DNA of 52,027 nt, taken from NCBI GenBank assembly GCA_964536205.1, contig CAZHVT010000002.1:67982-120008 (forward strand). The letters are read 5' to 3'. A program made the position numbers and the translations under genes. This document shows, one piece after another, positions 19,224 to 52,027 of the stretch. This stretch comes from an uncultured Gammaproteobacteria bacterium. GTDB taxonomy: Bacteria > Patescibacteriota > Patescibacteriia > Magasanikbacterales > GCA-002688135. Each line of letters opens with the position of its first letter. Position 1 is the stretch's first letter. The notes under the pieces are model-generated. The model was not told where the DNA came from and ran no database searches. It saw only the letters and a program-made list of their open reading frames with translations.

Positions 19224-19230
19224 CTGAAGA

Positions 19231-28083: not shown

Positions 28084-28140
28084 GAAAAAAAATAGAACAT
28101 CGAGTGCGTTTGTCCACATTTCTTGAAATCAAAAAAGAGT

Positions 28141-33987: not shown

Positions 33988-33988
33988 T

Positions 33989-36642: not shown

Positions 36643-36643
36643 T

Positions 36644-37246: not shown

Positions 37247-37261
37247 AATAAAACCGCGTGC

Positions 37262-37292
37262 AAAATAAGGATTGACAAGATCCTTATTTTTA
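37262..37292 (+). terminator. intrinsic terminator whose loop carries the next -35 box
   Basis: aataaggat-tgacaag-atccttatt plus T-run. Confidence 0.6.
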
Positions 37293-37300
37293 TATACTAT
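37272..37300 (+). promoter_or_regulatory. candidate promoter
   Basis: TTGACA-17 nt-TACTAT. Confidence 0.55.
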
Positions 37301-37389
37301 TTCGACAGTTCTTAAACAACCAATAGCAGGTGTAGTATGTGAACCATGTGAACAAACGCATGCTCATACGAACCTGGAAAGAGGTGAGA

Positions 37390-38562: not shown

Positions 38563-38568
38563 TACACG

Positions 38569-38596
38569 AACCGACTCTACGGAGTTGGTTTTTTAT
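38569..38596 (+). terminator. intrinsic terminator
   Basis: aaccgactc-tacg-gagttggtt plus T-run. Confidence 0.75.
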
Positions 38597-38601
38597 TACC
38601 T

Positions 38602-38630
38602 TTGACAATAAGATGAACTGTTGCTAGCAT
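38602..38630 (+). promoter_or_regulatory. candidate promoter
   Basis: TTGACA-17 nt-TAGCAT. Confidence 0.55.
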
Positions 38631-38660
38631 TGATATATTCGCTCATTAAAGGAGGAAACG

Positions 38661-38978
38661 TTGTCAGTCGAAGTTGGCACACGTGTAATAATTGTAATCG
38701 GAGGTGCTGGGCAGTTTGTAGAATGCTCGGTTTCAGAGTGCGTGGATGAGAATGGAAAAACATACATTCTCAAACCAGTCGAGCGGGAATTTAAACCGCC
38801 GACTGCTGAAAATCTCGAAAAGAAAAAACCGAAGAAAAAACAACCTCTTCAAATGCGATTACACCCCACATCGCAAGTGAAGGATCCAGATGAAATTCGA
38901 CGATATGGACAATGGTGCATATCATCACAAGTGAAGAAAAAGAAAGCAAAACTAATTGGAGGATTGGCGAGTGTTTAG
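38661..38978 (+). CDS. hypothetical protein (105 aa, TTG start), paralogue 1
   Basis: RBS AAAGGAGG; C-terminal QWC...KKKKAK. Confidence 0.6.
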   Translation: MSVEVGTRVIIVIGGAGQFVECSVSECVDENGKTYILKPVEREFKPPTAENLEKKKPKKKQPLQMRLHPTSQVKDPDEIRRYGQWCISSQVKKKKAKLIGGLASV

Positions 38979-39273
38979 TCCAATAGAAACGGATGACATT
39001 ATTCACAAATGCGTAGGCACTTCCACGCCGGTGAAAATTCGCGTACTGGAGGCAACGCAAGACAAAGATGTATTCTTGGTTGAGCAAGTTGCAGATGACA
39101 AGCGCGAAGGAAAGGATAAGGTTGGGCCGTTGCGCACATGTATTCGTCGTGCAGAGCATGTAGAGAAATTGATGTGGATACGTTCTGCCAATCAATGGTG
39201 CTTTGACGACAAGACAGCAAAGAGAAAGAAAAAAAATAAAACGGCTGATGTAATCGATCTGCCGCGACGATAA
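38971..39273 (+). CDS. hypothetical protein (about 100 aa, GTG start), paralogue 2
   Basis: RBS GGAGG 7 nt before GTG 38971; C-terminal QWC...KRKKKNK. Confidence 0.55.
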   Translation: MFSPIETDDIIHKCVGTSTPVKIRVLEATQDKDVFLVEQVADDKREGKDKVGPLRTCIRRAEHVEKLMWIRSANQWCFDDKTAKRKKKNKTADVIDLPRR

Positions 39274-39278
39274 ATTCA

Positions 39279-39304
39279 ACACCTCCATGTGAGGTGTATT
39301 TTTA
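39279..39304 (+). terminator. intrinsic terminator
   Basis: acacctc-catgt-gaggtgt plus T-run. Confidence 0.65.
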
Positions 39305-39333
39305 TTGACAAGATATCATATATATGATATAGT
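39305..39333 (+). promoter_or_regulatory. candidate promoter
   Basis: TTGACA-17 nt-TATAGT. Confidence 0.6.
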
Positions 39334-39365
39334 CCTGTTAATTCTTCAGTAGATAGGAATAAGGT

Positions 39366-39599
39366 ATGGTCGAAGAGGATCGGAAAAAAAGAGTAAAGAA
39401 AAGGGTGGAAGCCCATAACAGTGTCAAGGAAATACTCGGTTCACAGATTCAGCGAATTGAGAGTATATTGCACGAAGCAGGGGAGTCGGGATATATAACA
39501 TTAAAACTGACAATGAGTGATGAGGTTGATGGTCCGGTCAAGCGAGCTATCATGTCAGCGCGATTGATTGGAGAATCAAATACAAACACTTCTATGTGA
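39366..39599 (+). CDS. hypothetical protein (77 aa)
   Basis: Own promoter and terminator. Confidence 0.55.
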   Translation: MVEEDRKKRVKKRVEAHNSVKEILGSQIQRIESILHEAGESGYITLKLTMSDEVDGPVKRAIMSARLIGESNTNTSM

Positions 39600-39615
39600 G
39601 GTGTTCGCATGTAAC

Positions 39616-39644
39616 AAAAAACCAACCGAGCGGTTGGTTTTTTC
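39616..39644. terminator. bidirectional intrinsic terminator
   Basis: accaacc-gagc-ggttggt flanked by A5 and T6. Confidence 0.8.
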
Positions 39645-39651
39645 CTTCACA

Positions 39652-41241
39652 TTATTCAACCCATCTTCCATTCTCCTCATGAGGATAATCAAATTCATCT
39701 CCTGAATACGGATCATTCGCAGGATCATAATTCTCATCATGATCATCCGGATATCTACCTGCATCAGCTGGAGGAGGGAAATGATCTGGATTTCCATCAT
39801 CATAATATTCCTCATCCTCATAATCCTCATAATCACGCCGATCTTCCTCATCTAACATTCGCTCACATTCCGCATCACACGGACGATTGAAAATCTGCTC
39901 CCAAAATTCCTGTCCGGGGCATCCTTCTTGTCCAATACAATCCGGAACATTATCCCCATCCTTATCAAACTCCGCGGCAATCAATTCAAATTCATATGAA
40001 CCACCCATATCTTCCGGCATAGGAGGAAATTCATCGTGACGTGCATCATCATCATAATAATCATCCCGACCCTCAAAACGATAATCATCTCGACGCGCAC
40101 TTTCCTCAAAAAATTCCTCTGCTGTCATCGTAATCCACTGTCGACCATCAAAACATTCAATCAATGTCTCATCATCTAATGGATGACAATCTCCCTCTTG
40201 CGCATGCGCATCAAAATCATCTTTACCTTCATCAATCCACGGACCATCATATTCTAAATCCTCATACTGCTCGTCAGAGAAATGATCTTCAAGCGATGCA
40301 AATGCCTCATGAATATCGTGGCCTTGATCCGCATCCTCAATCAAATCATGTAAAGCAATCGGATCAAAATTTGGATCAGCGATAAGCGCTTCAACTCGAT
40401 CTGCAAAAGCCTGCGCTGCTGCTAAATCCTGTCGAGCAGCTTCTGCAACCGCAGCACTCTCTCGATCAACTGTTGTGGCGAAATTCAATCCACCTTCAAG
40501 CATACTTAAATACTGCAATTCTTTCGCTAACTCCTCTCGCATTTGTTCTTGAATTTGAGTTTTCAATGCAGCCGTTGGGTTCGCTTCATATCGATCCATC
40601 AAAATCGCCATAAACTCATCATCATGTTCCAGATTTGAACTTACTACATGTTGCGCAACATCATCGTAGTGATCACGCTGTTCTGATGGAATCTGCTTAA
40701 ATGCATCCACATAATCATCAGTAGATTCATTTGCACGCATTGCAATTTCTACAACCGTTTCATGATCTCCAATTTCATGTGCCATAACTTCCACATCATC
40801 CATCAAATCAGACAACAAGGTTTGCGTCTCACGAACCAATTCTGGCGTAACATCTCCCGAATTAATCAACGCTTGCAACTCATCAACACGACGTTGGGCA
40901 TATTTTAAATGTAAATCAGCTTTTTCCGCCTTGTCGCCCTTCAAAGCAACACTCACTTTTTCAGATGCAATTTTGACACCATATAATGGTTGTCCTGGAA
41001 GCGCATCTTGAGATGCATACACCGTTCCTCCAGTCATCGTTCCCAACACAAGCACAATCGCGAGCGCTGCAAACGCGGGTTTTCTCAATGTCATAGAAAT
41101 AGAGTTTAGTAAGTTAGTGAATATAGAACGATCGGCGGACGATGTTCTTTCTATATGCGAAATCAACTGCAATTTCACAGATTGTTTCTCCGACGCGCTC
41201 AATGTTGCGTCATCCTTAAGTTGTTTGAAGTTCTTGTTCAT
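39652..41241 (-). CDS. membrane-anchored anti-sigma-like protein with an acidic C-terminal tail
   Basis: Overlaps the sigma gene 3' end; one TM (AFAALAIVLVLG), then LPGQPLYGVKIASEK helical domain, then a D/E/Y-rich tail. Confidence 0.65.
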   Translation of the reverse strand: MNKNFKQLKDDATLSASEKQSVKLQLISHIERTSSADRSIFTNLLNSISMTLRKPAFAALAIVLVLGTMTGGTVYASQDALPGQPLYGVKIASEKVSVALKGDKAEKADLHLKYAQRRVDELQALINSGDVTPELVRETQTLLSDLMDDVEVMAHEIGDHETVVEIAMRANESTDDYVDAFKQIPSEQRDHYDDVAQHVVSSNLEHDDEFMAILMDRYEANPTAALKTQIQEQMREELAKELQYLSMLEGGLNFATTVDRESAAVAEAARQDLAAAQAFADRVEALIADPNFDPIALHDLIEDADQGHDIHEAFASLEDHFSDEQYEDLEYDGPWIDEGKDDFDAHAQEGDCHPLDDETLIECFDGRQWITMTAEEFFEESARRDDYRFEGRDDYYDDDARHDEFPPMPEDMGGSYEFELIAAEFDKDGDNVPDCIGQEGCPGQEFWEQIFNRPCDAECERMLDEEDRRDYEDYEDEEYYDDGNPDHFPPPADAGRYPDDHDENYDPANDPYSGDEFDYPHEENGRWVE

Positions 41242-41737
41242 ATAAATTCTTGAGTGATTTCAGTGCGCGATGAATCCGCAGCGATACATTATTTTTTGAA
41301 ATAGATAGTACGTCAGAAATCTCCTCAATTGTTTTATCTTCAATAAATCGTAATTGGATCACTTCTATATATGTGTCTGGTAATGACACCAACAAGTTCT
41401 TGCATACCTCCAAAGCCAATTGATGATCCAGAAAATCCACAATCTCACCGTCACGATCATCAGGAGCATCAAAATCCTCATCCATCTGAAACTCTCTCTG
41501 CGTTGAAGCTTTTTTAATATGATCAATCACCAAATTCCGCGCGACTTTATATAAGAACGCCTGCTCATGCTCAAACCCACCCTTTTGTTTGAACGACTTC
41601 CATGCATTACAAAACGTCTGCGCAAGAATATCTTGAGCCAATTCATGATTCTGCCGCACCTTAAAATAGATAAAGCGATAGATCGCATCTGCAAACTGTT
41701 CGTACAGCACGAGAAATTGTTGATCAAGAGATGACAT
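41216..41737 (-). CDS. ECF-type RNA polymerase sigma-70 factor
   Basis: Region 2 (ELAQDILAQTF) and region 4 HTH (IEEISDVLSISKNNVSLRIHRA). Confidence 0.9.
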   Translation of the reverse strand: MSSLDQQFLVLYEQFADAIYRFIYFKVRQNHELAQDILAQTFCNAWKSFKQKGGFEHEQAFLYKVARNLVIDHIKKASTQREFQMDEDFDAPDDRDGEIVDFLDHQLALEVCKNLLVSLPDTYIEVIQLRFIEDKTIEEISDVLSISKNNVSLRIHRALKSLKNLYEQELQTT

Positions 41738-41813
41738 CTTCTGTTATTTATGACGAATGATAGGAAACAATCTTTCAATGCGTTATAACCTATAAATTAG
41801 GATTTGGCAAGGG

Positions 41814-41842
41814 TTGACAAAGTGAGCAAAATGGTGTACATT
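41814..41842 (+). promoter_or_regulatory. candidate promoter
   Basis: TTGACA-17 nt-TACATT. Confidence 0.5.
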
Positions 41843-41874
41843 TGCACGCATCCAACTATCATGCGGAGAAACAA

Positions 41875-42159
41875 GTGCTGCCACAGCTTAAGCAAGAAAA
41901 AAAGAATGTTGTTGTGACATGGAAGAGGGGAGTTACCCCGACCGACATTTCGCCGACCACATGTCAACGAAGTGGTTTTGATTTCAATTCCATGTCATCG
42001 ACCTTTGGGATTTTCAGGGGCGACATGCCAACGATCAACCGTTTCTTTCAGAAGTACGATGTGACGTACTACGAATTGGATGACTCAACGCAACTTCAAA
42101 AGCTTGCGGAGGATCATCCAGCAGCTCGTTCCTTGGTCGAGATACGACTCGGCATCTGA
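41875..42159 (+). CDS. hypothetical protein (about 94 aa)
   Basis: GTG 41875 preceded by GGAGA; the TTG 41842 start of the ORF track overlaps the -10 box. Confidence 0.45.
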   Translation: MLPQLKQEKKNVVVTWKRGVTPTDISPTTCQRSGFDFNSMSSTFGIFRGDMPTINRFFQKYDVTYYELDDSTQLQKLAEDHPAARSLVEIRLGI

Positions 42160-42172
42160 TTATCATTCAGTA

Positions 42173-42201
42173 GGCGTTCTCACAAGAGAGCGCTTTTTTT
42201 A
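42173..42201 (+). terminator. intrinsic terminator
   Basis: gcgttctc-acaa-gagagcgc plus T7. Confidence 0.7.
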
Positions 42202-42229
42202 TTGACTAAAACAAGTAAAATGCTAAGAT
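42202..42229 (+). promoter_or_regulatory. promoter giving a leaderless GT2 mRNA
   Basis: TTGACT-16 nt-(TGc)TAAGAT; 6 nt between the -10 and ATG 42236. Confidence 0.6.
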
Positions 42230-42235
42230 TTCCGC

Positions 42236-43009
42236 ATGAAAGACATCTCTATTATTATTGTATCTTGGAATGTAAGGGAGAAACTGGCCGAATGTCTCAC
42301 ATCCATTGAAAAAGCCTCACAAAACCTCAATGTGGAGGTTTTTGTTGTGGATAACTTTTCACATGATGGATCAGCAGATATGGTCGAGAAAGATTTTCCA
42401 CATGTTGAATTGATAAGAAATAATTACAATGCAGGATGCGCACGCGCAGTAAATCGAGCGCTCAAACGAGCAACAGGAGATTTGATATTGTGGATGAATC
42501 CAGATATGCGATTATTCGATGACACACTCGATCACGTAAAAAAAGTCGCACGAGAAAATCCTCAAGCCGGAGTTATTGGTGCAAAACTAGAAAATGAAAA
42601 AGGAGAAATTGTTCCACATATCAGAAATTTCCCCACCACAAAAGATCAGCTCGCCATCGCAACGAAATTTGCAAAACTTTTTCCATCTACGCTCAATTCA
42701 TATTTGCAAAAAGATTTCGATTACACCAAACCAGCATACGTCGATTCCATTCGCGGATCATTCTTCTGCATCCCACGCCACATCATCGAAAATATCGGCG
42801 AACTCGACGAACAATTTTTCATTTGGTTTGAAGAGGTTGATTATTGCAAACGCGTCGTCAATGCCGGTTACAAAGTATTATACCATCCACGCATTCGCGC
42901 AATCGATTACGTCGGACAATCGTTCGCACAAGTCCCCACTGCAAAAAAACAAAAGATGTTTCTCTCGAGCATGAAGAAATATATGAAAAAACATGTATGG
43001 CAAAAGTAG
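42236..43009 (+). CDS. family 2 glycosyltransferase
   Basis: ISIIIVSWN, VVDNFSHDGS, NPD, EEVDYC. Confidence 0.9.
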   Translation: MKDISIIIVSWNVREKLAECLTSIEKASQNLNVEVFVVDNFSHDGSADMVEKDFPHVELIRNNYNAGCARAVNRALKRATGDLILWMNPDMRLFDDTLDHVKKVARENPQAGVIGAKLENEKGEIVPHIRNFPTTKDQLAIATKFAKLFPSTLNSYLQKDFDYTKPAYVDSIRGSFFCIPRHIIENIGELDEQFFIWFEEVDYCKRVVNAGYKVLYHPRIRAIDYVGQSFAQVPTAKKQKMFLSSMKKYMKKHVWQK

Positions 43010-43923
43010 CAGTTCACATTCTCACATACAATGGCCTAAAATACCTTCCAGAACTTTTTGCGTCCATCGCGTCGCAATCTTATAAAGATGTGCAGATAAG
43101 AATTCACGATAACAATTCAGATGATGGAACACGAGAATGGATCGCACAATACGCACAACAATTTATCCCACATGCAGAAATTGAATTATCAAAAAAAAAT
43201 ACAGGATTTGTCAGTGGCCACAACAAACTTTTCAAAAAAATCACAGATGAAAAATATGTATTGCTGGTGAATCAGGATACAAAACTCGAATCAGATTACA
43301 TCGAAAAATTGGTAGATCATCTTGAAACATATCCAACAGTCGCAGCAGCTTCAGGATTAATATTGAGATTCGATGGTAAAGATGATAACAGAGGATCAAT
43401 CGATTCAGCCGGTATCACGCTCAAACGAAATCGTTATGCACGCGATCGCAACGCCGGCGACTACATTGAAAAACATCACATTTCAGACTATCCTCCGTAT
43501 GAGCACGTTTTTGGTGTTTCTGGAACCTTGCCAATGTATCGCGTCAGTGCCATCGACACATTATTTGATGAAGATTTTGTGATGTATAAAGAAGATGTAG
43601 ATTTGGCATATCGATTACAAGCCAAAGGATATAAAGCATCTGTGGTAAACTATGCCATTGCATATCACGATAGAACCGTAGGATTAGACAAACCACGAGC
43701 GCGCAGAACATATGCATCCCGCTACAACTCATACAGAAATCATATGTGGATGTTAATCAAAAACGAAACAGGTAAAACATTCTGGCCGGACGCCCCATAT
43801 ATCATTTCTCATGAAATCGGAAAATTTTTCTATCTACTTTTCCGAGAACCTCGAACACTTCTTGCGTGGCGTGAAATAATAATGAAAGCATCAAAGATGC
43901 GCCGCAAAGCAAAAACAACATAA
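42997..43923 (+). CDS. family 2 glycosyltransferase
   Basis: VAVHILTYNG, IHDNNSDDGT, NQD, YKEDVDL; ATG 42997 overlaps the previous gene's end. Confidence 0.88.
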   Translation: MAKVAVHILTYNGLKYLPELFASIASQSYKDVQIRIHDNNSDDGTREWIAQYAQQFIPHAEIELSKKNTGFVSGHNKLFKKITDEKYVLLVNQDTKLESDYIEKLVDHLETYPTVAAASGLILRFDGKDDNRGSIDSAGITLKRNRYARDRNAGDYIEKHHISDYPPYEHVFGVSGTLPMYRVSAIDTLFDEDFVMYKEDVDLAYRLQAKGYKASVVNYAIAYHDRTVGLDKPRARRTYASRYNSYRNHMWMLIKNETGKTFWPDAPYIISHEIGKFFYLLFREPRTLLAWREIIMKASKMRRKAKTT

Positions 43924-43927
43924 GCTT

Positions 43928-43999
43928 GTCATCCTGAGCCTGTCGAAGGATCTCGTCAGAATTACCACGAGATCCTTCGACTAAAACGCTCAGGATGAC
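43928..43999. repeat. 72-bp nested GTCAT...ATGAC palindrome between two GT2 genes
   Basis: Outer stem gtcatcctgagc/gctcaggatgac (12 bp), inner stem gtcgaaggatctcgt/acgagatccttcgac (15 bp), loop cagaattacc. Confidence 0.9.
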
Positions 44000-44009
44000 A
44001 CGTTGAAAT

Positions 44010-44822
44010 ATGCACGACATATCAATCATCATCGTAAACTACAAAATGGCGGACTTTGTGCGCGATTGTTTAGCTGGTCTCAAAAAACAATGTGAGTCAT
44101 CAAAACTAAATATCAGAATCGTTGTTGTTGATAATAATTCAGACGATCATCTCCGCAATGTCATCACACAAAGCAATTGCCCAAACATTACATCAGTATT
44201 TCTCAAAGAAAATCTCGGGTATGGCGGGGGAGTGAATGAGGGAATCCGCGCAGTCAAAGCAGATTACTATTTTGTCGTAAATCCAGACTTAGTATTTTTT
44301 GACGAAAACACATTGGATAGGCTGCATGCATTTATGGAAAAAAATAAAAAAATCGGCATGGCAGCGCCGAAATTAATTAATACAGATGGATCATTGCAGT
44401 ATTCATGTTGGCGATTTCCAAAACGACTTGTGCCATTGTATCGCCGCACAAAACTTGGAAACACAAAACGAGGGAAAAAAGCGCTGCGACATTTTTTGAT
44501 GGAAGATTGGGATCACAATCAAACACGCCCAGTGGAATGCATTATGGGATCAGCAATGTTTGTGCGAGGGGAGGCTCTCAAAGAAGTCGGATTAATGAGC
44601 GAAGAATATTTTATGTATTTTGAAGATATGGATTGGTGCCGACAATTTTGGAATGCACACAAACCAATTTATTATGTGCATGATGTGCGGATTCGGCATC
44701 ATTGGCAAAGAGATTCAGCAAAGGTGAAAGGGATAAAAGCGATTGCACTAAATAGGCTTACACGTATTCATATTAAGAGTTGGGTGAAGTATATGTGGAA
44801 GTGGCGAAAAGTAAGGGATTAA
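44010..44822 (+). CDS. family 2 glycosyltransferase
   Basis: ISIIIVNYK, VVDNNSDD, NPD, FEDMDWC. Confidence 0.9.
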   Translation: MHDISIIIVNYKMADFVRDCLAGLKKQCESSKLNIRIVVVDNNSDDHLRNVITQSNCPNITSVFLKENLGYGGGVNEGIRAVKADYYFVVNPDLVFFDENTLDRLHAFMEKNKKIGMAAPKLINTDGSLQYSCWRFPKRLVPLYRRTKLGNTKRGKKALRHFLMEDWDHNQTRPVECIMGSAMFVRGEALKEVGLMSEEYFMYFEDMDWCRQFWNAHKPIYYVHDVRIRHHWQRDSAKVKGIKAIALNRLTRIHIKSWVKYMWKWRKVRD

Positions 44823-44964
44823 TGGGGGGTGCGCCCCAAAGACCAGGTTCATTCGCAGGCTTTTCAATTTTCTGCAGGAGTTATATATATTATTCTTAAA
44901 AAATTGTGGCGGGTCTTTGGTGCATGGTTAAAACTTACGAAATCGAAGATTTCTGGTTTTAACT

Positions 44965-45232
44965 AAAAACCGGCCCAGACCCCATGGAGTCAATTGCCGG
45001 TAAACTGAAGGACCCCGAAGGGGTTAAAAGTAGTTTGGAGCCCCCGTATCCTTGTTTTTTAGCCAATCATCCATGACGTCTAAGATGACCAACCTTTTGT
45101 GGTGCCGCGCATTGTTGCGATCACCGCTGTCATATGAGCCTTGTGTGCACTACCATCATCGTGATGCTTGTTGTAGTATTTTCCAACCCATACAACTCAG
45201 TTTCAATCCCCAACTGGTGGGGAGCAGTGCTG
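44965..45232 (-). ncRNA. candidate structured RNA, unit 2 (about 260 nt)
   Basis: Minus-strand TTGACA-17-TATCCT promoter upstream; cccc-UUCG-gggg hairpin; 3' hairpin ccggc...gccgg plus TTTTT (45000-44965); no credible ORF. Confidence 0.35.
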
Positions 45233-45237
45233 AATTA

Positions 45238-45266
45238 AGGATATACATATAAAGTTCTGGTGTCAA
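45238..45266 (-). promoter_or_regulatory. candidate promoter of RNA unit 2
   Basis: TTGACA (45266-45261), 17 nt, TATCCT (45243-45238) read on the minus strand. Confidence 0.4.
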
Positions 45267-45405
45267 CTGCGTCGCCTCTCAGCCATGTTCATCATTGCTT
45301 TTTAATAACTATGCAGAAGATTGAAATACGCAGTTTCTTTGTATCCCTACCAGGCTGTCGATGCATAGTAAATCGTCGCAAAATCAAAGATTTTGGCGGT
45401 TAACT

Positions 45406-45602
45406 AAAAACCGGCAATTATTCATTCCTTGAATAATTGCCGGCCACAAGCTGTCTGTGTCTACACAGCTTGTAGTGATGAGCAAATTGGTGGTAGGCAC
45501 ATCACTATCCTCACAACGATGAAAGGCGCGAATGACCACACAACCCCCGTTGTGTGATCCGGATACCATCGTTGCAAAGGGATCTTTCCCTAAAGATCTA
45601 CA
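45406..45602 (-). ncRNA. candidate structured RNA, unit 1 (about 190 nt)
   Basis: Minus-strand TTGACA-17-TATTCT promoter; five hairpins; ends in the 14-bp perfect stem ccggcaattattca/tgaataattgccgg plus TTTTT. Confidence 0.45.
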
Positions 45603-45608
45603 ATAGGT

Positions 45609-45637
45609 AGAATAGAGGAGAATCAAGCATATGTCAA
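45609..45637 (-). promoter_or_regulatory. candidate promoter of RNA unit 1
   Basis: TTGACA (45637-45632, overlapping the ATG of the plus-strand GT2 gene), 17 nt, TATTCT (45614-45609). Confidence 0.45.
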
Positions 45638-46704
45638 CAGGATACCAAATAGGAATCATACTCGTGAATTACAAGCATTATTGTGATCGTTTTTTGGCTG
45701 ATGCTCGAAATACATTGCGTAAACAAACATATCCGAAAGATTTATTCAAAGTATATATCATAGATAATGTTTCAACAGCCGAATCATTTAATAAACTTCA
45801 GGAAATGTATCCCGAGGCAGCAGTTGTCGCAACACAAGGAAATGGATGGGGGCATGCAAATAATCTTGGCATGAAAATGGCTTGGCATGATGGCTGTGAT
45901 GCAGCAGCACTCGTAAACATGGACACAGAGTTTGATGAAAACTGGCTCACAGAATTAGTTGATGCAGCATATTCAGATAACAAAATTGGAATCACACAAG
46001 CAAAAATAATGCTGTGGGAACTCAATCACAAAAAATCAAAAATAAATTCTGTGGGCAATCTCATGCATTATCTCGGATTTAGTTTTTGCGATGGGTATAA
46101 ACAAGAAAACGAGAAAACGGTAAATCAAGAAATCAAAGATATTTATTCAGCGTCAGGGGCTTCAATGCTTATTAAACGAAATGTCGCTGAATTAATTGGA
46201 GGATGTGATGAAGAATATTTTATGTATCATGATGATTTGGAGTTATCACTCAAAGCACGACTCGCAGGATTCAGAATCGTTCTCGCGCCACAATCAATCA
46301 TGTATCACAAATACGAATTCGGAAGATCAATCAAACAGGTGTATTACATGGAACGAAATCGATATCTCACCATGAATATTTTTTATAGCTGGCGAACGAG
46401 ATTGCTATTACTCCCAGCCACATTCGTAATGGATATTGGTATGTGGTTCTATGCGCTTGTGAAAGGATGGGCTGGCGCAAAATTTCGAGTATTTGTATAT
46501 TTCTTGAAACCATCAACAGCAAAACATATCAGAGAACAAAGAAAAAAATTGAAAAAAATCAGAACAATAAAAGATCGCGAATTACTGAATGACGCTGTCG
46601 GAAAAGTAGAGTTTCAGGAGATTGATAATCCAGTTTTAAAATACATAGCGAACCCGATATTGAATGCCTACTGGCGGCTTGTCAAAAAGCTCATAATCTG
46701 GTAA
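45631..46704 (+). CDS. family 2 glycosyltransferase with a C-terminal membrane segment
   Basis: IGIILVNYK, IIDNVSTAES, MDTE, HDDLELS; RBS AGAGGAG. Confidence 0.88.
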   Translation: MSTGYQIGIILVNYKHYCDRFLADARNTLRKQTYPKDLFKVYIIDNVSTAESFNKLQEMYPEAAVVATQGNGWGHANNLGMKMAWHDGCDAAALVNMDTEFDENWLTELVDAAYSDNKIGITQAKIMLWELNHKKSKINSVGNLMHYLGFSFCDGYKQENEKTVNQEIKDIYSASGASMLIKRNVAELIGGCDEEYFMYHDDLELSLKARLAGFRIVLAPQSIMYHKYEFGRSIKQVYYMERNRYLTMNIFYSWRTRLLLLPATFVMDIGMWFYALVKGWAGAKFRVFVYFLKPSTAKHIREQRKKLKKIRTIKDRELLNDAVGKVEFQEIDNPVLKYIANPILNAYWRLVKKLIIW

Positions 46705-46716
46705 CACAGAGGTTCT

Positions 46717-47805
46717 ATGAAAGCACTTATTACAGCCGGCGGCCATGCAACCCGCCTGCGCCCCATAACCTGGAACCGAAACAAACACCTCATCCCCATG
46801 GCAAACAAATCCATGCTCGCTTATGCTATCGATAAAATTGTAGATGCGGGAATTACAGACATCGCTATCAACATCAATCCGGGAGAATCAGAAATACAAA
46901 ACGCCATTGGAGATGGCTCACAACATGGATGCGCTATAACCTATATAGAACAGCAGGGTGGCGCAAAAGGTTTAGCGCACATCGTTAAAAACGCAAAAGA
47001 TCATGGATTCTTAGATGGCACGCCTTTTTTAATGTATCTCGGAGATAATATTTTACTGGCAGATTTATCAGCAATGGTAAAAAGATTCAAAGAAGATGAA
47101 ATGAACTGTTTGTTGGCATTATCAAAAGTCCCAGATCCAGAACGATTCGGAGTCCCAGAAATTATCGATGGAAAAATCGTACGAGTCGAAGAAAAACCAA
47201 GCGATCCAAAATCTGACTACGCAATCACAGGAATTTATTTATACGATCAACATGCGTTGGATGCAGTTGAAAACATGCAACTTTCAGATCGCGGAGAATA
47301 CGAAATCACCGACATTCATCAACATTATATAGATAACGATTTAACCATCGGATACGAAGAAATCACTGGATGGTGGAAAGACACCGGAAAGCCGGAAGAT
47401 TTGTTGATCGGAAATCAATTTATTTTAGATGAAATTAAAACTGGCGATGTTGGTATTGATGCAGAAGCAAAAGTTGCACAAAGCGCAAACATCCAAGGAA
47501 AAGTCGCAATTGGAAAGGGTACAGTAATTGCAGATGGCGTTTTGATCCGCGGCCCTGTCACCATCGGAGAAAATTGTGTGATTCATAATGCATACATCGG
47601 CCCCTACACCTCAATCGGAAATTCATGCGAGATTTATGAAACAGAAATCGAACACTCTATTATTTTCGATGATGTTACGATAAAATGTGGAAAGCGAATC
47701 GCAGATTCAATTATCGGAAAAGGCGCAACAGTTGTAGCAGCATCAGAATCAAAACCTTCCGGACACAAACTTATTATTGGAGATAACTCGCTCGTAGAAT
47801 TATAG
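46717..47805 (+). CDS. sugar-1-phosphate nucleotidyltransferase, long form with a left-handed beta-helix C-terminus (glucose-1-P thymidylyltransferase-like)
   Basis: ITAGGHATRLRPIT..NKHLIP, GDN, EKP; hexapeptide repeats in the C-terminal third. Confidence 0.85.
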   Translation: MKALITAGGHATRLRPITWNRNKHLIPMANKSMLAYAIDKIVDAGITDIAININPGESEIQNAIGDGSQHGCAITYIEQQGGAKGLAHIVKNAKDHGFLDGTPFLMYLGDNILLADLSAMVKRFKEDEMNCLLALSKVPDPERFGVPEIIDGKIVRVEEKPSDPKSDYAITGIYLYDQHALDAVENMQLSDRGEYEITDIHQHYIDNDLTIGYEEITGWWKDTGKPEDLLIGNQFILDEIKTGDVGIDAEAKVAQSANIQGKVAIGKGTVIADGVLIRGPVTIGENCVIHNAYIGPYTSIGNSCEIYETEIEHSIIFDDVTIKCGKRIADSIIGKGATVVAASESKPSGHKLIIGDNSLVEL

Positions 47806-47806
47806 G

Positions 47807-47835
47807 TTGACAAAACCGCACAGAGCATGTATTAT
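47807..47835 (+). promoter_or_regulatory. consensus promoter firing antisense into the PemK-like gene
   Basis: TTGACA-17 nt-TATTAT; the predicted transcript starts near 47842 with a ggc-UUCG-gcc hairpin and runs into the 3' end of the minus-strand gene at 47875. Confidence 0.5.
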
Positions 47836-47874
47836 CAAAATATAAATGGGCTTCGGCCTCCGAAATACCTGCGA

Positions 47875-48294
47875 TCATTGATCGTGGGTATTGTCTTTTA
47901 AAATGAGAAATAGTTTGTCTTGAATATGTGTCATTTCATCAATACCTAACATTCTAATTTTCCGTCGCAAACGTTTACTTGAAAAGAGGCGAACTTGTGA
48001 GAGGATTGCGTACGAGATGTAATTATTGTGGGTAAGTAGAGCATGGCATCTTTCATGTCCTTTTTGAGAGGTAAGTGGGATTCCGAGAAATACATGTTTA
48101 TTGAATTTTCGCAAAATAAGAACCGGCCGCTCAAAATGATCATGTTTACCATTTTGCTCAAATCCGATATTATGACCAACACTTGCCCACCACAGCTCGC
48201 GTTCATAGAAATACACGGGTTGATCAGCTGAGAGATGAAGTCGAATTTTACGCTTTGTCCAATCAACAAAGGGCTTGATAGTTTCATCGTTCAT
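47875..48294 (-). CDS. PemK/MazF-family toxin-like protein, no adjacent antitoxin gene
   Basis: ELWWASVGHNIGFEQNGKHDHFERPVLILRKF...GIPLTS...ILSQVRLFSSKRL; start ATG 48294 (48318/48327 alternatives). Confidence 0.7.
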   Translation of the reverse strand: MNDETIKPFVDWTKRKIRLHLSADQPVYFYERELWWASVGHNIGFEQNGKHDHFERPVLILRKFNKHVFLGIPLTSQKGHERCHALLTHNNYISYAILSQVRLFSSKRLRRKIRMLGIDEMTHIQDKLFLILKDNTHDQ

Positions 48295-48311
48295 ATATCC
48301 TAGTATATCGT

Positions 48312-48659
48312 ATGTCATCAAAAACAAACATCGAGTGCATCGGCAAGTCTGAAGACTTCCCCGAAGGCAAAGGAAAAAAAGTAGTCATCGGATTCGTCGA
48401 CTGCGCAGTCTTCCGCAAAAACGGAGAACTCGGATGCGTCACATCAAACTGCGTCCATAAAGGAGGCCCTCTATGCGACGGCTGGATGAAAGGCGATAAA
48501 ATCGTATGCCCATGGCACTTCTGGGAATTTGATTTCAAAACAGGAAAAGGAGATGGAAACGAATCTCAAGGCTCGTACAAAATCTGGGAAGAAGATGGAA
48601 AGGTGTATGTGGAAACAAAGAAAATGGAAACAGAACGTAAAGAGTATCCTGCATTTTAA
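48312..48659 (+). CDS. Rieske [2Fe-2S] domain protein (NirD-like small subunit type)
   Basis: CVHKGGPL ... CPWHFWEF. Confidence 0.88.
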   Translation: MSSKTNIECIGKSEDFPEGKGKKVVIGFVDCAVFRKNGELGCVTSNCVHKGGPLCDGWMKGDKIVCPWHFWEFDFKTGKGDGNESQGSYKIWEEDGKVYVETKKMETERKEYPAF

Positions 48660-48661
48660 TA

Positions 48662-48690
48662 TTGACAAAAAAAATTGGAAGTAATAGTAT
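48662..48690 (+). promoter_or_regulatory. candidate promoter
   Basis: TTGACA-17 nt-TAGTAT. Confidence 0.6.
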
Positions 48691-48717
48691 GCTGGCAGAC
48701 TTAAAAAGGAGAGAGGG

Positions 48718-49092
48718 ATGAGCGAGCATATCCTTGGTTATCTGAAGGTAAATGTGGGGCAGGTTCGCAGCGAGCTGGAAACTCAGGTATATCTGCGACG
48801 AAAGGATGAGGAGTTCCTCAATTCCGCCGAGGGAATTGATCATACATTCTGTATTCGCATGAAAGCAGAAGTTGTAGGAGAAAAGGACACAGAACTCGAT
48901 TCTGGTGGACTCATCCGAGATGCAATATTCGCTGCGTGCGAGTATTTCAAACAGCAAAACAATCGTAGTAACGTGCAAGCACAATGCACAGTACATGTTC
49001 TTTTCCCAAGCGGATTTGAGATGCTGCTTCCAGCTCGATTCTGGCACAAGTGGTTCGATGAGTATCGGAAACCACTCAAAGAAGTTGCATGA
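48718..49092 (+). CDS. hypothetical protein (124 aa)
   Basis: RBS AAAAAGGAGAG; own promoter and terminator. Confidence 0.65.
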   Translation: MSEHILGYLKVNVGQVRSELETQVYLRRKDEEFLNSAEGIDHTFCIRMKAEVVGEKDTELDSGGLIRDAIFAACEYFKQQNNRSNVQAQCTVHVLFPSGFEMLLPARFWHKWFDEYRKPLKEVA

Positions 49093-49098
49093 TGTAAG

Positions 49099-49122
49099 CC
49101 GAGGAACATCCTCGGTTTTTTA
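49099..49122. terminator. bidirectional intrinsic terminator
   Basis: ccgagga-aca-tcctcgg plus T6. Confidence 0.75.
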
Positions 49123-49129
49123 TTTCAGA

Positions 49130-50422
49130 TTATTCCTCTCGTAAATCAAGAGTAAAGAAACCAGTTTTATTTTTGATAGTTCCCGAGAGATAGACGGATA
49201 AACCTTTTTCATCACTCACAATTTCGTCAATCGAAACATCTTGCAATAAGCCGGTTGTTTGATGTTCAGATTCTTGTGTATTAAACGCAATCAATTCATT
49301 CCCACGAGAAACTAAAATATATTCCGTGCCATGCAAAGGTTCGACAGTTCGAATATCTCCGCCATATCGCGCAATAGTCCGTAATTGATCGTCAGAAACA
49401 TCCCATCGAATAATCTCAAATCGATTATAAAAATACGCAACATTTTCATTTTTCCAAACAACGGTATATCGATCATATGGCATCAGTGAAACCAATCCAG
49501 TCTCATCAACGTAACTCACGCGATTATCATGTACAAACAATGTTCGAAAATCAGATTCAAGAAGAAAAGTAGATTTTTTTTCATCAATAAACACTATCTC
49601 CTGATCATCAAGCGAAACCTCCACAAGTTGGCCAACGCGATCAACATCTCGCAAAATAAAAGCAGAATCATCAGACAGTCCGATAATCTGTGTCGCATGA
49701 GTAATGACTTCCGGATCATGCGCACGGCTGACAGAAATACGCACAAGCCGATCTGAAATATCAATCACATACACATCGTCAGATGAAGTTTTTGACCAAA
49801 CAATTTGTCCATACGAAAGCGGCACAATCGGACGATCATCCACAAAAATAACTCGATGGGCATTTCCAGTACGCAACAAAATCGCAGAAGAATCATTATT
49901 CAAAGAAAATTCCCAATCAGCTACAAAATCTGTTTTGTATAATGAATCCCAAGTACTCGATTCTGGTGTGTAAAGAAATAATTCTTTCCCTGTCGGATTT
50001 TTAGTCTCAACGACAAATTTTTTGTATGAAGGATGCGGAGTGATAGAAACAATCTCTGAATCACGAAGAAGTTCTGGCGCAGATTGCTTCAGTAAAAAAA
50101 CCGGAGAAATAACTAAACTTTCTCCAGCTCGAACATCTCGCGCAAACCAAACCTCATGATATCCCTCACTCTTCAAAACGATATTATAAAAGTTGGGCGC
50201 AACTCCTTTTTGTTTCAATGGCAGACGATCAGAAACCTTTTTATCATCCAAATAAACTTGCGTATTGCGCGGCTCTCCATCAACAATAATAATCCCAACT
50301 CGAGAAACTAACCCAGATTTAAAATCAAACCGATAACCTGAAGCATAAAAAATCAGCGCAGGCGCTGCGATGAAGAAAAGTAGTAGAAAGATGGGGAATA
50401 CGAATTTTGGAAGTTTGGACAT
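49130..50422 (-). CDS. PEGA-domain membrane-anchored protein
   Basis: ATG 50422 (MSKLPKFVFPIFLLLFFIAAPALIF TM), then IIVDGEPRNTQVYLDDKKV PEGA-like module. Confidence 0.7.
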   Translation of the reverse strand: MSKLPKFVFPIFLLLFFIAAPALIFYASGYRFDFKSGLVSRVGIIIVDGEPRNTQVYLDDKKVSDRLPLKQKGVAPNFYNIVLKSEGYHEVWFARDVRAGESLVISPVFLLKQSAPELLRDSEIVSITPHPSYKKFVVETKNPTGKELFLYTPESSTWDSLYKTDFVADWEFSLNNDSSAILLRTGNAHRVIFVDDRPIVPLSYGQIVWSKTSSDDVYVIDISDRLVRISVSRAHDPEVITHATQIIGLSDDSAFILRDVDRVGQLVEVSLDDQEIVFIDEKKSTFLLESDFRTLFVHDNRVSYVDETGLVSLMPYDRYTVVWKNENVAYFYNRFEIIRWDVSDDQLRTIARYGGDIRTVEPLHGTEYILVSRGNELIAFNTQESEHQTTGLLQDVSIDEIVSDEKGLSVYLSGTIKNKTGFFTLDLREE

Positions 50423-50546
50423 ATTTTTTCGTAACTCGTAAAGCATAAAGAGTAAAATGTGTCGCGAAGCGACGATTATAGATGTGTCGCTTCGCGACCC
50501 CTTAAACCGCATTACGAGTTACGCTTTACGCTTTACGATTCCTATG
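50423..50546. repeat. hairpin element with aaatgtgtcgcgaagcgacgatt core, copy 2
   Basis: Core 50455-50477 followed by its inverted copy gtcgcttcgcgac (50487-50499); arms built from ttacg words. Confidence 0.75.
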
Positions 50547-50575
50547 TTGACCTTCAGCGATCTATGCTATACTAT
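50547..50575 (+). promoter_or_regulatory. candidate murA promoter
   Basis: TTGACC-17 nt-TACTAT. Confidence 0.5.
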
Positions 50576-50610
50576 ACCGCACCTAGAAACGACAGATAAG
50601 AATAACACCT

Positions 50611-51897
50611 ATGCCATCAGTAACAATAAAAGGGGGGGTAAAACTACGCGGCGAAGTGCCTATTTTTGGTATGAAAAACGCTGTATTGCCGTGTATTGCA
50701 GCGACAATTCTAACATCTCAACCAGTAACGCTCAAGAATGTACCACGAATCACAGATGCTATCAATATGCTCAAGATCATCGAGAGTTTGGGCGGTACTG
50801 TTGAGTGGATTGAGGAGCACACCGTGAAAATTCAATGCGATAATCTGAACATTGACACACTTGATAAAAAACAGGTGAAATCAATGCGCTCAAGTGTGTT
50901 ATTGATGGGGCCGCTTATGGCGCGCTTTAATCAGATCGAACTTTCAGAGCCAGGTGGATGCATTATTGGAAATCGTCCGATGGATGATCATATTGCGGTG
51001 TTCAAAGGTTTTGGTGCAGAGATAAATCGTATTGAGGGCGGATTACAATTACGTGCAACAAAACTACAAGGATCAACATTCTTTGCGAGATTTTCAGTTA
51101 CTGCAACAGAAAATGCTTTGATGGCAGCATCACTTGCAGAAGGGACAACAACAATTAAATTAGCAGCCCGCGAACCACATGTCTGTAATCTTATCGATAT
51201 GTTGGTAGCAATGGGGGCAAAAATTTCAGGACGTGGCACATCAACCTTAACTATTGTTGGAGTCGAAAAATTACATGGATGCGATCACGAAATAATCCCA
51301 GACCAAATCGAAATCGGAACATTCATTGCCGCAGCAGCCGCAACACGAGGTGAATTATTTTTAAAACCAATTGTCGCAGAACACTTAGATGCAATATTCG
51401 CACTCATGGAAAAAATGAAGCTTCCTTATGAAGTAAAAGGCGACACATTACACATCATGCCAAACGGTTCGCTCAAATCATTCAAATTACAAACCGGCCC
51501 ATACCCATCATTCCCAACAGATTTACAGGCTCCATTTGGAGTGATAGCCATGCAAGCTTCAGGCACATCTTTAATTCACGACACCATGTTTGAGGGAAGA
51601 TTAGGATACATCAATGAATTGATTAAGATGGGGGCCAACGCAACCATCTGTGATCCACATCGCGTTTTAATTACTGGTCCTACGCCGCTATATGGAACAG
51701 AAATCAGATCGTTAGATTTACGAGCTGGCGTAACATTGGTAATCGCCGCATTAGTTGCAGAAGGACAAACAACAATCCACGACGCCCAAATTTTGGATCG
51801 TGGATACTACAAATGGCGCGAAAGATTCCAGGCAATCGGAGCAGAGATTAAGACAGAAATGCCCAAAGAAGTTGAAAGTTTAGTACGAACAATGTAA
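50611..51897 (+). CDS. murA: UDP-N-acetylglucosamine 1-carboxyvinyltransferase
   Basis: ISGAKNA-equivalent GMKNAVLP, active-site loop EPGGCIIGNRPMD, FPTDLQAP. Confidence 0.95.
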   Translation: MPSVTIKGGVKLRGEVPIFGMKNAVLPCIAATILTSQPVTLKNVPRITDAINMLKIIESLGGTVEWIEEHTVKIQCDNLNIDTLDKKQVKSMRSSVLLMGPLMARFNQIELSEPGGCIIGNRPMDDHIAVFKGFGAEINRIEGGLQLRATKLQGSTFFARFSVTATENALMAASLAEGTTTIKLAAREPHVCNLIDMLVAMGAKISGRGTSTLTIVGVEKLHGCDHEIIPDQIEIGTFIAAAAATRGELFLKPIVAEHLDAIFALMEKMKLPYEVKGDTLHIMPNGSLKSFKLQTGPYPSFPTDLQAPFGVIAMQASGTSLIHDTMFEGRLGYINELIKMGANATICDPHRVLITGPTPLYGTEIRSLDLRAGVTLVIAALVAEGQTTIHDAQILDRGYYKWRERFQAIGAEIKTEMPKEVESLVRTM

Positions 51898-51963
51898 ATG
51901 AATCGGAGTCCATAATATTCGCACCAAACCTGTCTAGATTCAGCCCAGTTAAGCACGAACAAT

Positions 51964-52027
51964 ATAGGCGGAAGGAAAACGTATTCGCAGTGAAACGGAG
52001 AATACTTTTCCGTTACTATAAGTGCCG
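51964..52027. repeat. 64-nt conserved hairpin element, copy 2 (runs to the window edge)
   Basis: 58/64 identical to 22544-22607. Confidence 0.85.

Follow-up and report, generated by a model that had tools for sequence, protein, structure and literature searches.

What does an 808-nt gap (44823-45630) contribute to a glycosyltransferase cluster when it is flanked on both sides by plus-strand GT2 glycosyltransferase genes and seems to encode no protein? Patescibacteria are uncultivated, have tiny genomes, and need their cell envelope for host attachment; to our knowledge, very few regulatory RNAs are known in this Candidate Phyla Radiation. The gap lies in what we call the window, i.e., the whole 52,027-nt stretch of DNA that was analyzed, from an uncultivated Parcubacteria/Patescibacteria bacterium with a genome of roughly 1 Mb. 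Here, we report that the minus strand of the gap carries two predicted RNA units, the first of which (unit 1) is a solid but lineage-restricted candidate for a new regulator that belongs to no known RNA family. The cluster around the gap is as follows.

Positions 42236 to 47805, plus strand: glycosyltransferase cluster that holds the gap, with GT2 and nucleotidyltransferase genes downstream of the gap.

There is no credible ORF in the gap, only short frames, among them the 66-aa frame (plus strand, TTG start) and the 91-aa frame (minus strand) that the initial annotation had listed. The same annotation described the gap as clearly richer in G+C than its surroundings; the gap is indeed above the window (0.441 versus 0.417), but the enrichment is modest, since 16% of 808-nt windows are equally high, and the word clearly has to be dropped. 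The predicted RNA bodies have a G+C of 0.46-0.49 and the tails described below one of 0.38-0.40. Six further contigs carry the same locus with a gap that is 100% identical, and they are therefore uninformative on variation.

The motif TTGACA-N17-TAnnnT occurs 19 times in the window, versus 0.68 copies expected over about 104 kb of strand, and 15 of the 19 copies sit 8-45 nt 5' of an ORF that is 50 aa or longer and in most cases has a Shine-Dalgarno sequence. Judging from this number and placement, the motif is a genuine promoter consensus of the window organism, of the housekeeping type; it reads off promoters with near-certainty and is usable across the rest of the genome. Two copies are located inside the gap, both on the minus strand and both found where they had been proposed (45637-45609 and 45266-45238). 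In contrast to the 15 copies mentioned above, these two have no conserved ORF after them. The unit 1 promoter meets the downstream GT2 gene at both elements: -35 shares bases with the gene start (ATG-TCA-A), and -10 directly adjoins the gene's Shine-Dalgarno sequence. Ordinary genes in the window usually have a clear AGGAG-type site.

Positions 45609 to 45637, minus strand: unit 1 promoter TTGACA-17-TATTCT, a consensus match that is kept in the Parcubacteria MAG ARS125.
Positions 45238 to 45266, minus strand: unit 2 promoter TTGACA-17-TATCCT, a consensus match with no ORF of at least 50 aa after it.

Downstream of the first promoter, a series of hairpins leads to an intrinsic terminator. All the hairpins that had been listed by eye are present, including in unit 1 a 14-bp perfect stem (45411-45424/45430-45443) followed by T5. 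This terminator is the strongest terminator-like site within 33000-52027, and similar terminators close ordinary genes in the window. The fold of unit 1 has a z of -6.9 versus shuffles, equal on both strands, because the stems are perfect, i.e., a single sequence does not tell the strands apart.

Positions 45406 to 45602, minus strand: predicted unit 1 RNA, about 197 nt, fold z -6.9, with a homologue in ARS125 (contig L019, 1-227).
Positions 45581 to 45598, minus strand: 5' hairpin of unit 1, from the fold.
Positions 45566 to 45579 and 45509 to 45522, minus strand: long stem of unit 1, enclosing the hairpin at 45527-45561.
Positions 45474 to 45506 and 45446 to 45473, minus strand: two further hairpins of unit 1, from the fold.
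Positions 45406 to 45445, minus strand: intrinsic terminator of unit 1, with a stem of 14-16 bp, a 5-nt loop, and U5 (-23.3 kcal/mol).

ARS125 is the only closer relative that was found via both flanking GT2 proteins (92% and 83% amino-acid identity); with the next-nearest relative (84%/66%), the gap can no longer be aligned. Please note that the ARS125 assembly is broken on both sides of its gap. Unit 1 and its ARS125 homologue share 71% identity over aligned columns, versus 51% at the 4-fold sites of the adjacent gene. The indels between them are 1, 2, 2, 4, 5, and 8 nt long, i.e., not multiples of three, the mismatches are spread over the three phases as 20/22/21 without a codon phase, and the 38-aa and 61-aa frames of unit 1 are lost in ARS125, where no ORF survives on either strand. 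The substitution pattern looks non-coding, and the codon-type conservation that would have pointed to a decayed or small protein gene was not seen. ARS125 keeps the unit 1 promoter, with both hexamers and the 17-nt spacing, and the 22 nt directly 5' of the GT2 start are invariant between the two genomes.

The hairpin series of unit 1 forms in both sequences, and the strand becomes visible once they are folded together: the minus-strand consensus fold reaches -44.3 kcal/mol (z -5.95) and the plus-strand one -31.7 kcal/mol (z -4.7). Of the one-sided changes, about nine remain paired as G·U on the minus strand only, and the ARS125 terminator stem is maintained via two compensatory pairs and one G·U; this is a comparison of two distinct sequences, in which two compensatory and about nine G·U-preserving changes leave the covariation statistically insecure. 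What the sequences show are thus the promoter and terminator signals of both units and, for unit 1, a non-coding, conserved stretch with a hairpin structure that folds better on the minus strand. The family appears confined so far to two related marine Parcubacteria genomes, i.e., to one lineage.

Unit 2 is a single sequence. Its prediction draws on good signals at both ends, i.e., promoter and terminator, and it lacks any ORF with a Shine-Dalgarno sequence; its fold is weak (z -2.06 versus shuffles). The UUCG hairpin that had been assigned to it is present (45024-45012), and, as had been argued for the orientation of both units, U-tracts trail the terminator hairpins on the minus strand only. 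One 34-aa hydrophobic ORF (45134-45238, plus strand), beginning MSLVCTTIIVMLVVVF..., lies wholly under the predicted unit 2 RNA.

Positions 44965 to 45231, minus strand: predicted unit 2 RNA, about 267 nt, 49% G+C, with promoter and terminator signals.
Positions 45012 to 45024, minus strand: CCCC-UUCG-GGGG hairpin of unit 2, confirmed in the sequence.
Positions 44965 to 45000, minus strand: terminator of unit 2, with a stem in two parts (CCGGCA.../...GGCCGG around an inner helix of 5 bp) and U5 (-16.9 kcal/mol).

Are the two units copies of each other? The initial annotation called them paralogous, a term that fits the 3' module only; between the two bodies there is no relationship, with no similarity in global or local alignment beyond that of shuffles. 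The 16-mer TTAACTAAAAACCGGC, on which that claim was built, does have exactly two copies in the window (0.04 expected), and the unit 1 and unit 2 terminators have CCGGCAATT and GCCGGTTTTTAGTTAA in common. The real extent of the shared module is larger, however, i.e., a direct repeat of about 170 nt (44831-45000 versus 45272-45443, period 441 nt) with an alignment score of 60 versus 23 +/- 3.7 for shuffles, and most of it lies past the terminators, in two tails that are outside the predicted RNAs.

Positions 45272 to 45405, unstranded: tail A1, downstream of the unit 1 terminator, with the palindrome CAAAATC-AAA-GATTTTG (45379-45395) and a long-range stem.
Positions 44831 to 44964, unstranded: tail A2, diverged from its copy A1 and beginning 8 nt past the stop of the upstream GT2 gene, with the palindrome GAAATC-GAA-GATTTC (44939-44953).

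The 18-mer around the A1 palindrome is identical in ARS125, and the far end of A1, cgcctctcagcca, is present at the end of ARS125 contig L023. The ORFs in A1 and A2 differ in frame relative to homologous bases. We also considered the 18-mer palindrome as a viral link, and rejected it; it recurs in an unrelated phage repeat and a giant-virus MAG as chance hits.

Neither the gap nor the window matched a known RNA family. Rfam 15 at gathering thresholds gave no match over the whole window (including 6S, tmRNA, RNase P, SRP, GOLLD, ROOL, OLE, raiA, HEARO, and riboswitches), and the search of 44600-45900 with E up to 10 gave only eight chance-level matches, the best at 20.9 bits versus a threshold of 92, in line with the initial annotation, in which no common RNA core had been recognized by eye. 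At permissive E-values, the Rfam search of the gaps of two relatives (L016 and L018) and of nine further loci returned nothing, and ARAGORN found no tRNA or tmRNA in the window or in 14 loci. Likenesses to RNase P, CsrB-type RNAs, and ops/JUMPstart (GGGAAAGAUCC, GGA loops, GGCGGT) were followed by eye and discarded as partial, not enriched, or absent from the second copy. Measured against a generic bacterial sRNA gene, as predicted from a sigma-70-type promoter, an intrinsic terminator 50-400 nt further along the same strand, and conservation, both units have the sequence signals, and unit 1 is in addition conserved above the neutral rate; the gap units differ from such genes in that they belong to no described family and that the conserved module runs past the terminators.

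How could such units act where they are? No plus-strand consensus promoter or terminator was found between 42229 and 47807, and the downstream GT2 and nucleotidyltransferase genes, with no such signal of their own strand in the gap, are therefore probably expressed by read-through across it; conceivably, the downstream GT2 gene also has a plus-strand promoter that departs from the consensus. We infer cis-antisense control of this gap-crossing operon mRNA as the most likely role. The corresponding reading, that the gap consists of two independently transcribed minus-strand non-coding RNA genes with a cis-antisense role on the operon, is held tentatively, with a chance that we put a little short of even. 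Also in its favor, the two GT2 genes are direct neighbors, with 1-27 nt between them, in the relatives L013, L021, L022, and L024 and in about 40 of 64 evaluable metagenome loci. Unit 1 (about 45602-45406) and unit 2 (about 45231-44965) would each be transcribed from their own housekeeping-type promoter to their intrinsic terminator, head-on against the operon, giving two RNAs whose complementarity to the spacer, an untranslated part of the operon mRNA, would be perfect. Control may then work via duplex formation and cleavage, via polymerase collision, or via both, and the downstream genes would be uncoupled from the upstream ones or tuned relative to them. Expression of both RNAs, read-through of the operon, and the regulatory mechanism are likewise what we infer from the sequence.

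The closest known arrangement is GadY of Escherichia coli, a cis-encoded antisense sRNA opposite the gadX-gadW intercistronic region. GadY and the gap units have in common their own promoter and terminator, a strand opposite to the operon, a position over an untranslated intercistronic spacer, and full complementarity to the polycistronic mRNA; the gap units are encoded opposite the spacer of two co-oriented GT2 cistrons that are adjacent in relatives. By analogy, the expected outcome for the gap would be processing or uncoupling of the operon halves. This likeness is one of arrangement, as there is no sequence or Rfam relationship between GadY and the gap units, and the gap differs in having two tandem units instead of one, longer, multi-hairpin RNAs, and a Parcubacteria/Patescibacteria host. 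The locus is a well-delimited candidate, combining the promoter consensus of the organism with a strong terminator and with conservation that exceeds the neutral rate, and its position inside a glycosyltransferase cluster makes it a concrete case for metatranscriptomics on antisense control of envelope glycosylation. Nothing about the locus breaks known principles, and the family is so far found in one lineage.

The same signals and the same conservation would be expected if the two minus-strand RNAs exist but work in trans, by base-pairing or protein-binding on targets elsewhere, with the operon position being an incidental slot. Both RNAs would end inside the gap, at their terminators, and in distant Patescibacteria the same junction holds different minus-strand RNA-like genes, a small membrane-protein ORF (roughly 110 aa), or nothing, and this variation suggests a permissive insertion slot. 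However, blastn found no complementary target of the RNAs in the 52-kb window, which covers about 5% of the genome, and any RNA from the gap is, by its position alone, complementary to an operon transcript that reads through. We consider action in trans unlikely, although it deserves real weight.

The tails bring in a different view, i.e., that function lies with the operon mRNA, on the plus strand, and that the gap is a structured spacer or leader of the downstream GT2 gene, stabilizing, processing, or attenuating it, with the minus-strand signals being secondary. Folded as a consensus, A1/A2 reach -25.2 kcal/mol (z -9.2) on the plus strand, far better than the -10.6 kcal/mol (z -3.2) of the minus strand, with several plus-specific G·U pairs, and in the ARS125 fragment two pairs of the extended tail hairpin are kept by compensatory change; a model of two minus-strand RNAs leaves this better plus-strand fold unexplained. 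The invariant 22 nt upstream of the GT2 start would fit as well. So would a known parallel: EAR (eps-associated RNA) of Bacillales is a structured element inside an exopolysaccharide/glycosyltransferase operon, on the sense strand and part of the mRNA, and the gap too is a conserved structured non-coding element in a polysaccharide-type cluster, the plus fold of A1/A2 being what such an element may look like. This is in contrast to the signals and the unit 1 structure of the gap, which point to the antisense strand; please note that the Rfam 15 null makes no statement on the EAR model. The long stem of unit 1 is complete on the minus strand only, three of its G·U pairs becoming A·C mismatches on the plus strand with a poorer consensus energy, it is only on the minus strand that U-tracts come after the hairpins, and two perfect promoter motifs would have to be there by chance where about 0.68 are expected per 104 kb of strand. 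As an account of the whole gap, a plus-strand element is quite unlikely; for the tails only, it may coexist with cis-antisense control.

Could the gap be non-functional debris, left by the decay of a gene or by local duplication, or else a non-autonomous mobile element (e.g., a MITE or an IS200/IS605-type end)? The gap is missing in several relatives and varies in length and content by lineage, the 170-nt direct repeat with its 441-nt period suggests local duplication, and the ARS125 assembly breaks on either side of the gap. Unit 1, however, is conserved above neutral sites (71% versus 51%). We found no gene trace by tblastn of the neighboring proteins and of the roughly 110-aa junction membrane ORF against the gap (best E 0.2-1), no terminal inverted repeats flanking it, and no transposase, TnpB, IscB, or reverse-transcriptase domain (the scanned window proteins against Pfam, and precomputed Pfam of the flanking genes). 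The search for extra copies (16-mer, blastn with word size 7, covariance model R1) over the window and about 150 loci returned only the weak 3'-module paralogue. Phage and plasmid BLAST gave no match, and scans of viral contigs with three conserved words gave chance hits only, without a meaningful viral match. The mobile-element origin that had been named early as the competing explanation has thus left no IS200/IS605 or MITE signs in the window or the fetched loci, and we regard debris as very improbable.

Slightly less probable still is a coding role of the gap, for small proteins or for a type I toxin-antitoxin pair: type I modules are often structured, antisense-paired, and locally duplicated, and the hydrophobic 34-aa ORF is fully overlapped by the predicted unit 2 RNA, but this ORF has neither a Shine-Dalgarno sequence, in a window where genes usually have one of the AGGAG type, nor a plus-strand promoter, the unit 1 ORFs are lost in ARS125 with mismatches that have no codon phase, and the A1 and A2 ORFs are in different frames over homologous bases.

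Does cis-antisense control, as favored above, extend beyond this lineage? A broader reading is that the junction of the third and fourth GT2 genes is a recurrent, selected site of antisense RNA "insulators" in Patescibacteria cell-envelope operons, with unrelated minus-strand units in at least three lineages (window and ARS125, L016, L018), tRNA-like and partner RNAs in others, and a two-layered arrangement in the window lineage, where antisense RNAs would be combined with a duplicated sense-mRNA element (A1/A2). We judge this generalization decidedly unlikely; if true, it would mean a new kind of intra-operon switch, beyond two ordinary small RNAs. The gaps of L016 and L018 are 250 nt long and show no remote homology to unit 1, either in a MAFFT alignment or with covariance model R1 with filters off. 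On the minus strand of these two unrelated gaps, a promoter-like site lies at the GT2 start, which in L018 reads TTGACA-17-TATGTT, in the same position as the unit 1 promoter, and a terminator lies at the upstream stop codon; we count this arrangement also in favor of cis-antisense control in the window.

The initial annotation read the gap as two minus-strand structured RNA genes; the sequence elements it described are all present at the coordinates it gave, and its interpretation holds in part: unit 1 is well supported as a new, lineage-restricted small-RNA gene known from two genomes (that of the window and ARS125, a related Parcubacteria MAG), unit 2 is plausible as another such gene, and paralogy is limited to the 3' module. 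The source bacterium belongs to the Patescibacteria (Parcubacteria-group), and the neighbourhood consists of housekeeping genes (uvrC, rsmH, clpB, recR, dnaB, and a murA-like gene).

Features of the locus (window coordinates)
42236-47805, plus strand: glycosyltransferase cluster, four GT2 genes and a nucleotidyltransferase gene
44010-44822, plus strand: upstream GT2 glycosyltransferase gene, bordering the gap
45631-46704, plus strand: downstream GT2 glycosyltransferase gene, bordering the gap
44823-45630: the gap, 808 nt
about 45602-45406, minus strand: unit 1, predicted RNA
about 45231-44965, minus strand: unit 2, predicted RNA
45272-45405: tail A1, beyond the unit 1 terminator
44831-44964: tail A2, diverged copy of A1

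All ORFs in the gap are short, and the longest are exactly the two that had been named when it was described as lacking a credible ORF, i.e., a 66-aa frame (plus strand, TTG start) and a 91-aa frame (minus strand). The gap had also been called clearly richer in G+C than its surroundings; it is slightly richer (0.441 vs 0.417 for the window), but this enrichment is modest, being equalled by 16% of 808-nt windows. G+C is 0.46 and 0.49 in the two predicted RNA bodies and 0.38-0.40 in the tails past the terminators.

Both minus-strand TTGACA-17-TATyCT sites proposed for the gap are in place. In its strict form, TTGACA-N17-TAnnnT, the motif has 19 copies in the window vs 0.68 ± 0.83 in shuffles, and 15 of the 19 copies lie 8-45 nt upstream of a same-strand ORF of at least 50 aa, mostly with an AGGAG-type ribosome-binding site; because of this excess and this position ahead of ORFs, the motif is the housekeeping promoter consensus of the organism, chance copies are rare, and the two gap promoters are very likely real. 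Both point to the minus strand with no gene behind them: after the unit 2 promoter no ORF reaches 50 aa, and the unit 1 promoter is followed by just a 61-aa frame, which has no ribosome-binding site, crosses the terminator hairpin, and stops after 7 codons in ARS125. Unit 1 ends, as had been described, in a 14-bp perfect stem with T5, the strongest terminator site within 33000-52027, and unit 2 in a two-part stem (-16.9 kcal/mol) followed by U5; intrinsic terminators of like type close ordinary genes of the window at 42172, 38568, 39279, and 49096.

Relatives were sought with both flanking GT2 proteins, and one genome was informative, that of ARS125, whose GT2 proteins share 92% and 83% identity with their window counterparts; six further contigs with the locus are 100% identical across the gap and thus uninformative. 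ARS125 contig NZCD01000021.1 begins 243 nt ahead of the downstream GT2 gene, and this stretch is the homologue of window 45378-45630, i.e., unit 1. Unit 1 is under purifying selection, since its identity (71% of aligned columns) exceeds the 51% at 4-fold degenerate sites in the neighbouring gene. The initial annotation had set against its own reading a decayed or small protein gene, to be recognized by codon-type conservation; such conservation is absent in unit 1, where the indels are 1, 2, 2, 4, 5, and 8 nt long and the 63 mismatches are distributed 20/22/21 by phase. The promoter retains both hexamers and the 17-nt spacing around a variable spacer sequence, and the terminator stem is preserved by two compensatory pairs and one G·U. 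The ARS125 homologue has a matching hairpin series (fold z -5.3), in which other sequences take the place of the hairpin 45474-45506 and the inner hairpin 45527-45561 with pairing retained. The ARS125 assembly is broken within the homologous gap on both sides (NZCD01000008.1, locus L023 4814-4872, ends at the start of an A-type tail; NZCD01000021.1, locus L019 1-243, starts at the palindrome), so that the gap centre, including any unit 2 equivalent, is missing from it; the break may itself stem from a repeat.

The hairpins listed for the two units, the UUCG hairpin included, were all found. For unit 1 (45400-45610) the fold has a z of -6.9, and the plus strand reaches an equal z because the stems are perfect; unit 2 does not stand out on either strand (minus, z -2.06; plus, z -1.26). 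The long stem of unit 1, pairing 45566-45579 with 45509-45522, comprises 13-14 bp (three of them G·U) on the minus strand, and on the plus strand its 8-bp core alone can form. About nine one-sided substitutions between the window and ARS125 keep pairing as G·U on the minus strand only, and the consensus fold of the two sequences has a minus-strand energy of -44.3 kcal/mol (z -5.95 vs column shuffles) and a plus-strand energy of -31.7 kcal/mol (z -4.7). Please note that a comparison of two sequences is suggestive, not statistical; it would favour the minus strand for unit 1, which fits the promoter and terminator orientation.

The two GT2 genes lie 1-27 nt apart in four of the compared loci (L013, L021, L022, and L024) and in ~40 of the 64 metagenome loci that could be evaluated; they thus belong to one operon ancestrally. 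Where a gap is present, its content varies by lineage. Two loci (L016 and L018) have ~250-nt gaps unrelated in sequence to that of the window. In each, the minus strand has a terminator right against the upstream stop and a promoter-like site where the downstream gene starts; the L018 site has a perfect TTGACA over ATG-TCA-A, exactly as in the window and ARS125. The junction is thus a recurrent home of small genes, often minus-strand and RNA-like. Six loci of distant Patescibacteria (e.g., L044 2212-2492, minus strand) carry at the GT2-GT2 junction a 78-nt tRNA-like element whose acceptor-like stem has 12 bp and whose T-arm (CGGGG-UUCAAUC-CCCCG) is canonical; ARAGORN makes no call on it, and its best Rfam match is sub-threshold (mascRNA, E 0.005). 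Behind it stand a perfect TTGACA-17-TATAAT promoter and a ~70-nt RNA with a terminator, whose body is complementary in trans to the D-/anticodon-arm region of the element (15 + 12 bp); L062 and L065 have this second RNA only. In eight other loci the gap ahead of the GT2 match holds a conserved ORF (plus strand, ~107-118 aa) for a small multi-pass membrane protein (MTIFQIL...GRGVDL...), of which no trace is detectable in the window gap.

Between 42229 and 47807 the cluster has no plus-strand consensus promoter, and between 42195 and 47864 no plus-strand terminator, because of which the downstream GT2 and nucleotidyltransferase genes probably need read-through of the 808-nt spacer. RNAs from the minus-strand units would be perfectly complementary to this spacer, and their synthesis would run head-on against operon transcription. 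The most parsimonious model is cis-antisense control, in which the downstream genes would be tuned relative to the upstream ones by pairing into a duplex that is then cleaved, by polymerase collision, or by both, and the strong terminators would hold the antisense transcripts off the upstream coding region. The layout is comparable to that of GadY in E. coli, which lies opposite the gadX-gadW spacer as the two units lie opposite the GT2-GT2 spacer. We infer expression, read-through, and regulatory outcome alike; the main rival is that the unit RNAs act in trans. The locus is of value mainly for offering a testable case of RNA regulation within an operon for envelope glycosylation in a CPR bacterium.

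For tails A1 and A2, and for no other part of the gap, a role on the sense strand is to be taken seriously. The units had been taken as paralogous, and their 3' modules do share a direct repeat of ~170 nt (44831-45000 vs 45272-45443; alignment score 60 vs 23 ± 3.7 for shuffles), within which the 16-mer reported to occur twice was confirmed, but the bodies align no better than shuffles. The repeat comprises the terminator base and ~135 nt past it, and most of it thus lies outside the predicted RNAs. The tails are nevertheless constrained: the 18-mer around the palindrome CAAAATC-AAA-GATTTTG of tail A1 is unchanged in ARS125; NZCD01000008.1 ends 45 nt past the upstream GT2 stop with cgcctctcagccag, agreeing in 13 of 14 positions with the far end of A1; and between A1 and A2 a long-range stem and an extended hairpin are preserved by many compensatory changes. 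The consensus fold of the tails reaches -25.2 kcal/mol (z -9.2) on the plus strand and only -10.6 kcal/mol (z -3.2) on the minus strand. So large a plus-strand advantage is unexpected and may reflect action inside the sense operon mRNA; alternatively, the palindrome may be a protein-binding DNA site. The 18-mer palindrome CCAAAATCTTTGATTTTG also occurs within a segment that is repeated in an unrelated phage contig (L110 2637-2654 and 3685-3702) and several times in the giant-virus MAG GVMAG-S-3300013131-116 (six loci); these matches were judged coincidental, their flanks having nothing in common with the window.

Known identities fared poorly. The Rfam search, which followed a failure to match known RNAs by eye, gave no family for the gap even with relaxed thresholds, and neither a tRNA nor a tmRNA was found. 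By tblastn the gap bears no trace of the neighbouring genes or of the ~110-aa membrane-protein ORF borne by other lineages at the junction, and is rejected as a remnant of either. No transposase, TnpB/IscB, reverse-transcriptase, or Cas domains were found (Pfam scan of window proteins; precomputed annotation of flanking genes), no further copies of any gap part occur in the window or ~150 other loci, and the gap has no phage or plasmid similarity, word matches to viral contigs being chance.

Several other features of the window deserve mention. Bordering the upstream side of the glycosyltransferase cluster, and transcribed away from it on the minus strand, are genes for an ECF-like sigma factor (41216-41737) and a DUF5667 protein (39652-41241), possibly a dedicated regulator pair of the cluster. 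A perfect plus-strand promoter (TTGACA-17-TATTAT) without an ORF behind it begins 2 nt past the nucleotidyltransferase stop (47807-47900); with the 13-bp hairpin and T-rich tail downstream at 47864-47892, it predicts a plus-strand RNA of ~55-60 nt, convergent with and overlapping the 3' end of a minus-strand PemK/MazF-like toxin gene (47875-48327), which could be an antisense RNA in a toxin-antitoxin locus. A fourth "orphan" promoter motif (11671-11699, plus strand), with 30-44-aa frames only and no ORF reaching 50 aa within 90 nt downstream, may drive another small RNA or small-protein gene. At 18869-19608 lie two tandem ORFs of 105 aa (18906-19223 and 19291-19608), each served by a perfect promoter motif of its own and with its ATG just 8 nt past the -10 hexamer; they are apparently leaderless mRNAs from a duplicated small gene. 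Finally, one protein (26940-28049, minus strand) joins an N-terminal LexA-type DNA-binding domain to an N6/N4 DNA methyltransferase domain, an unusual fusion, and its gene adjoins that of a PD-(D/E)XK nuclease-family protein (28123-28830).
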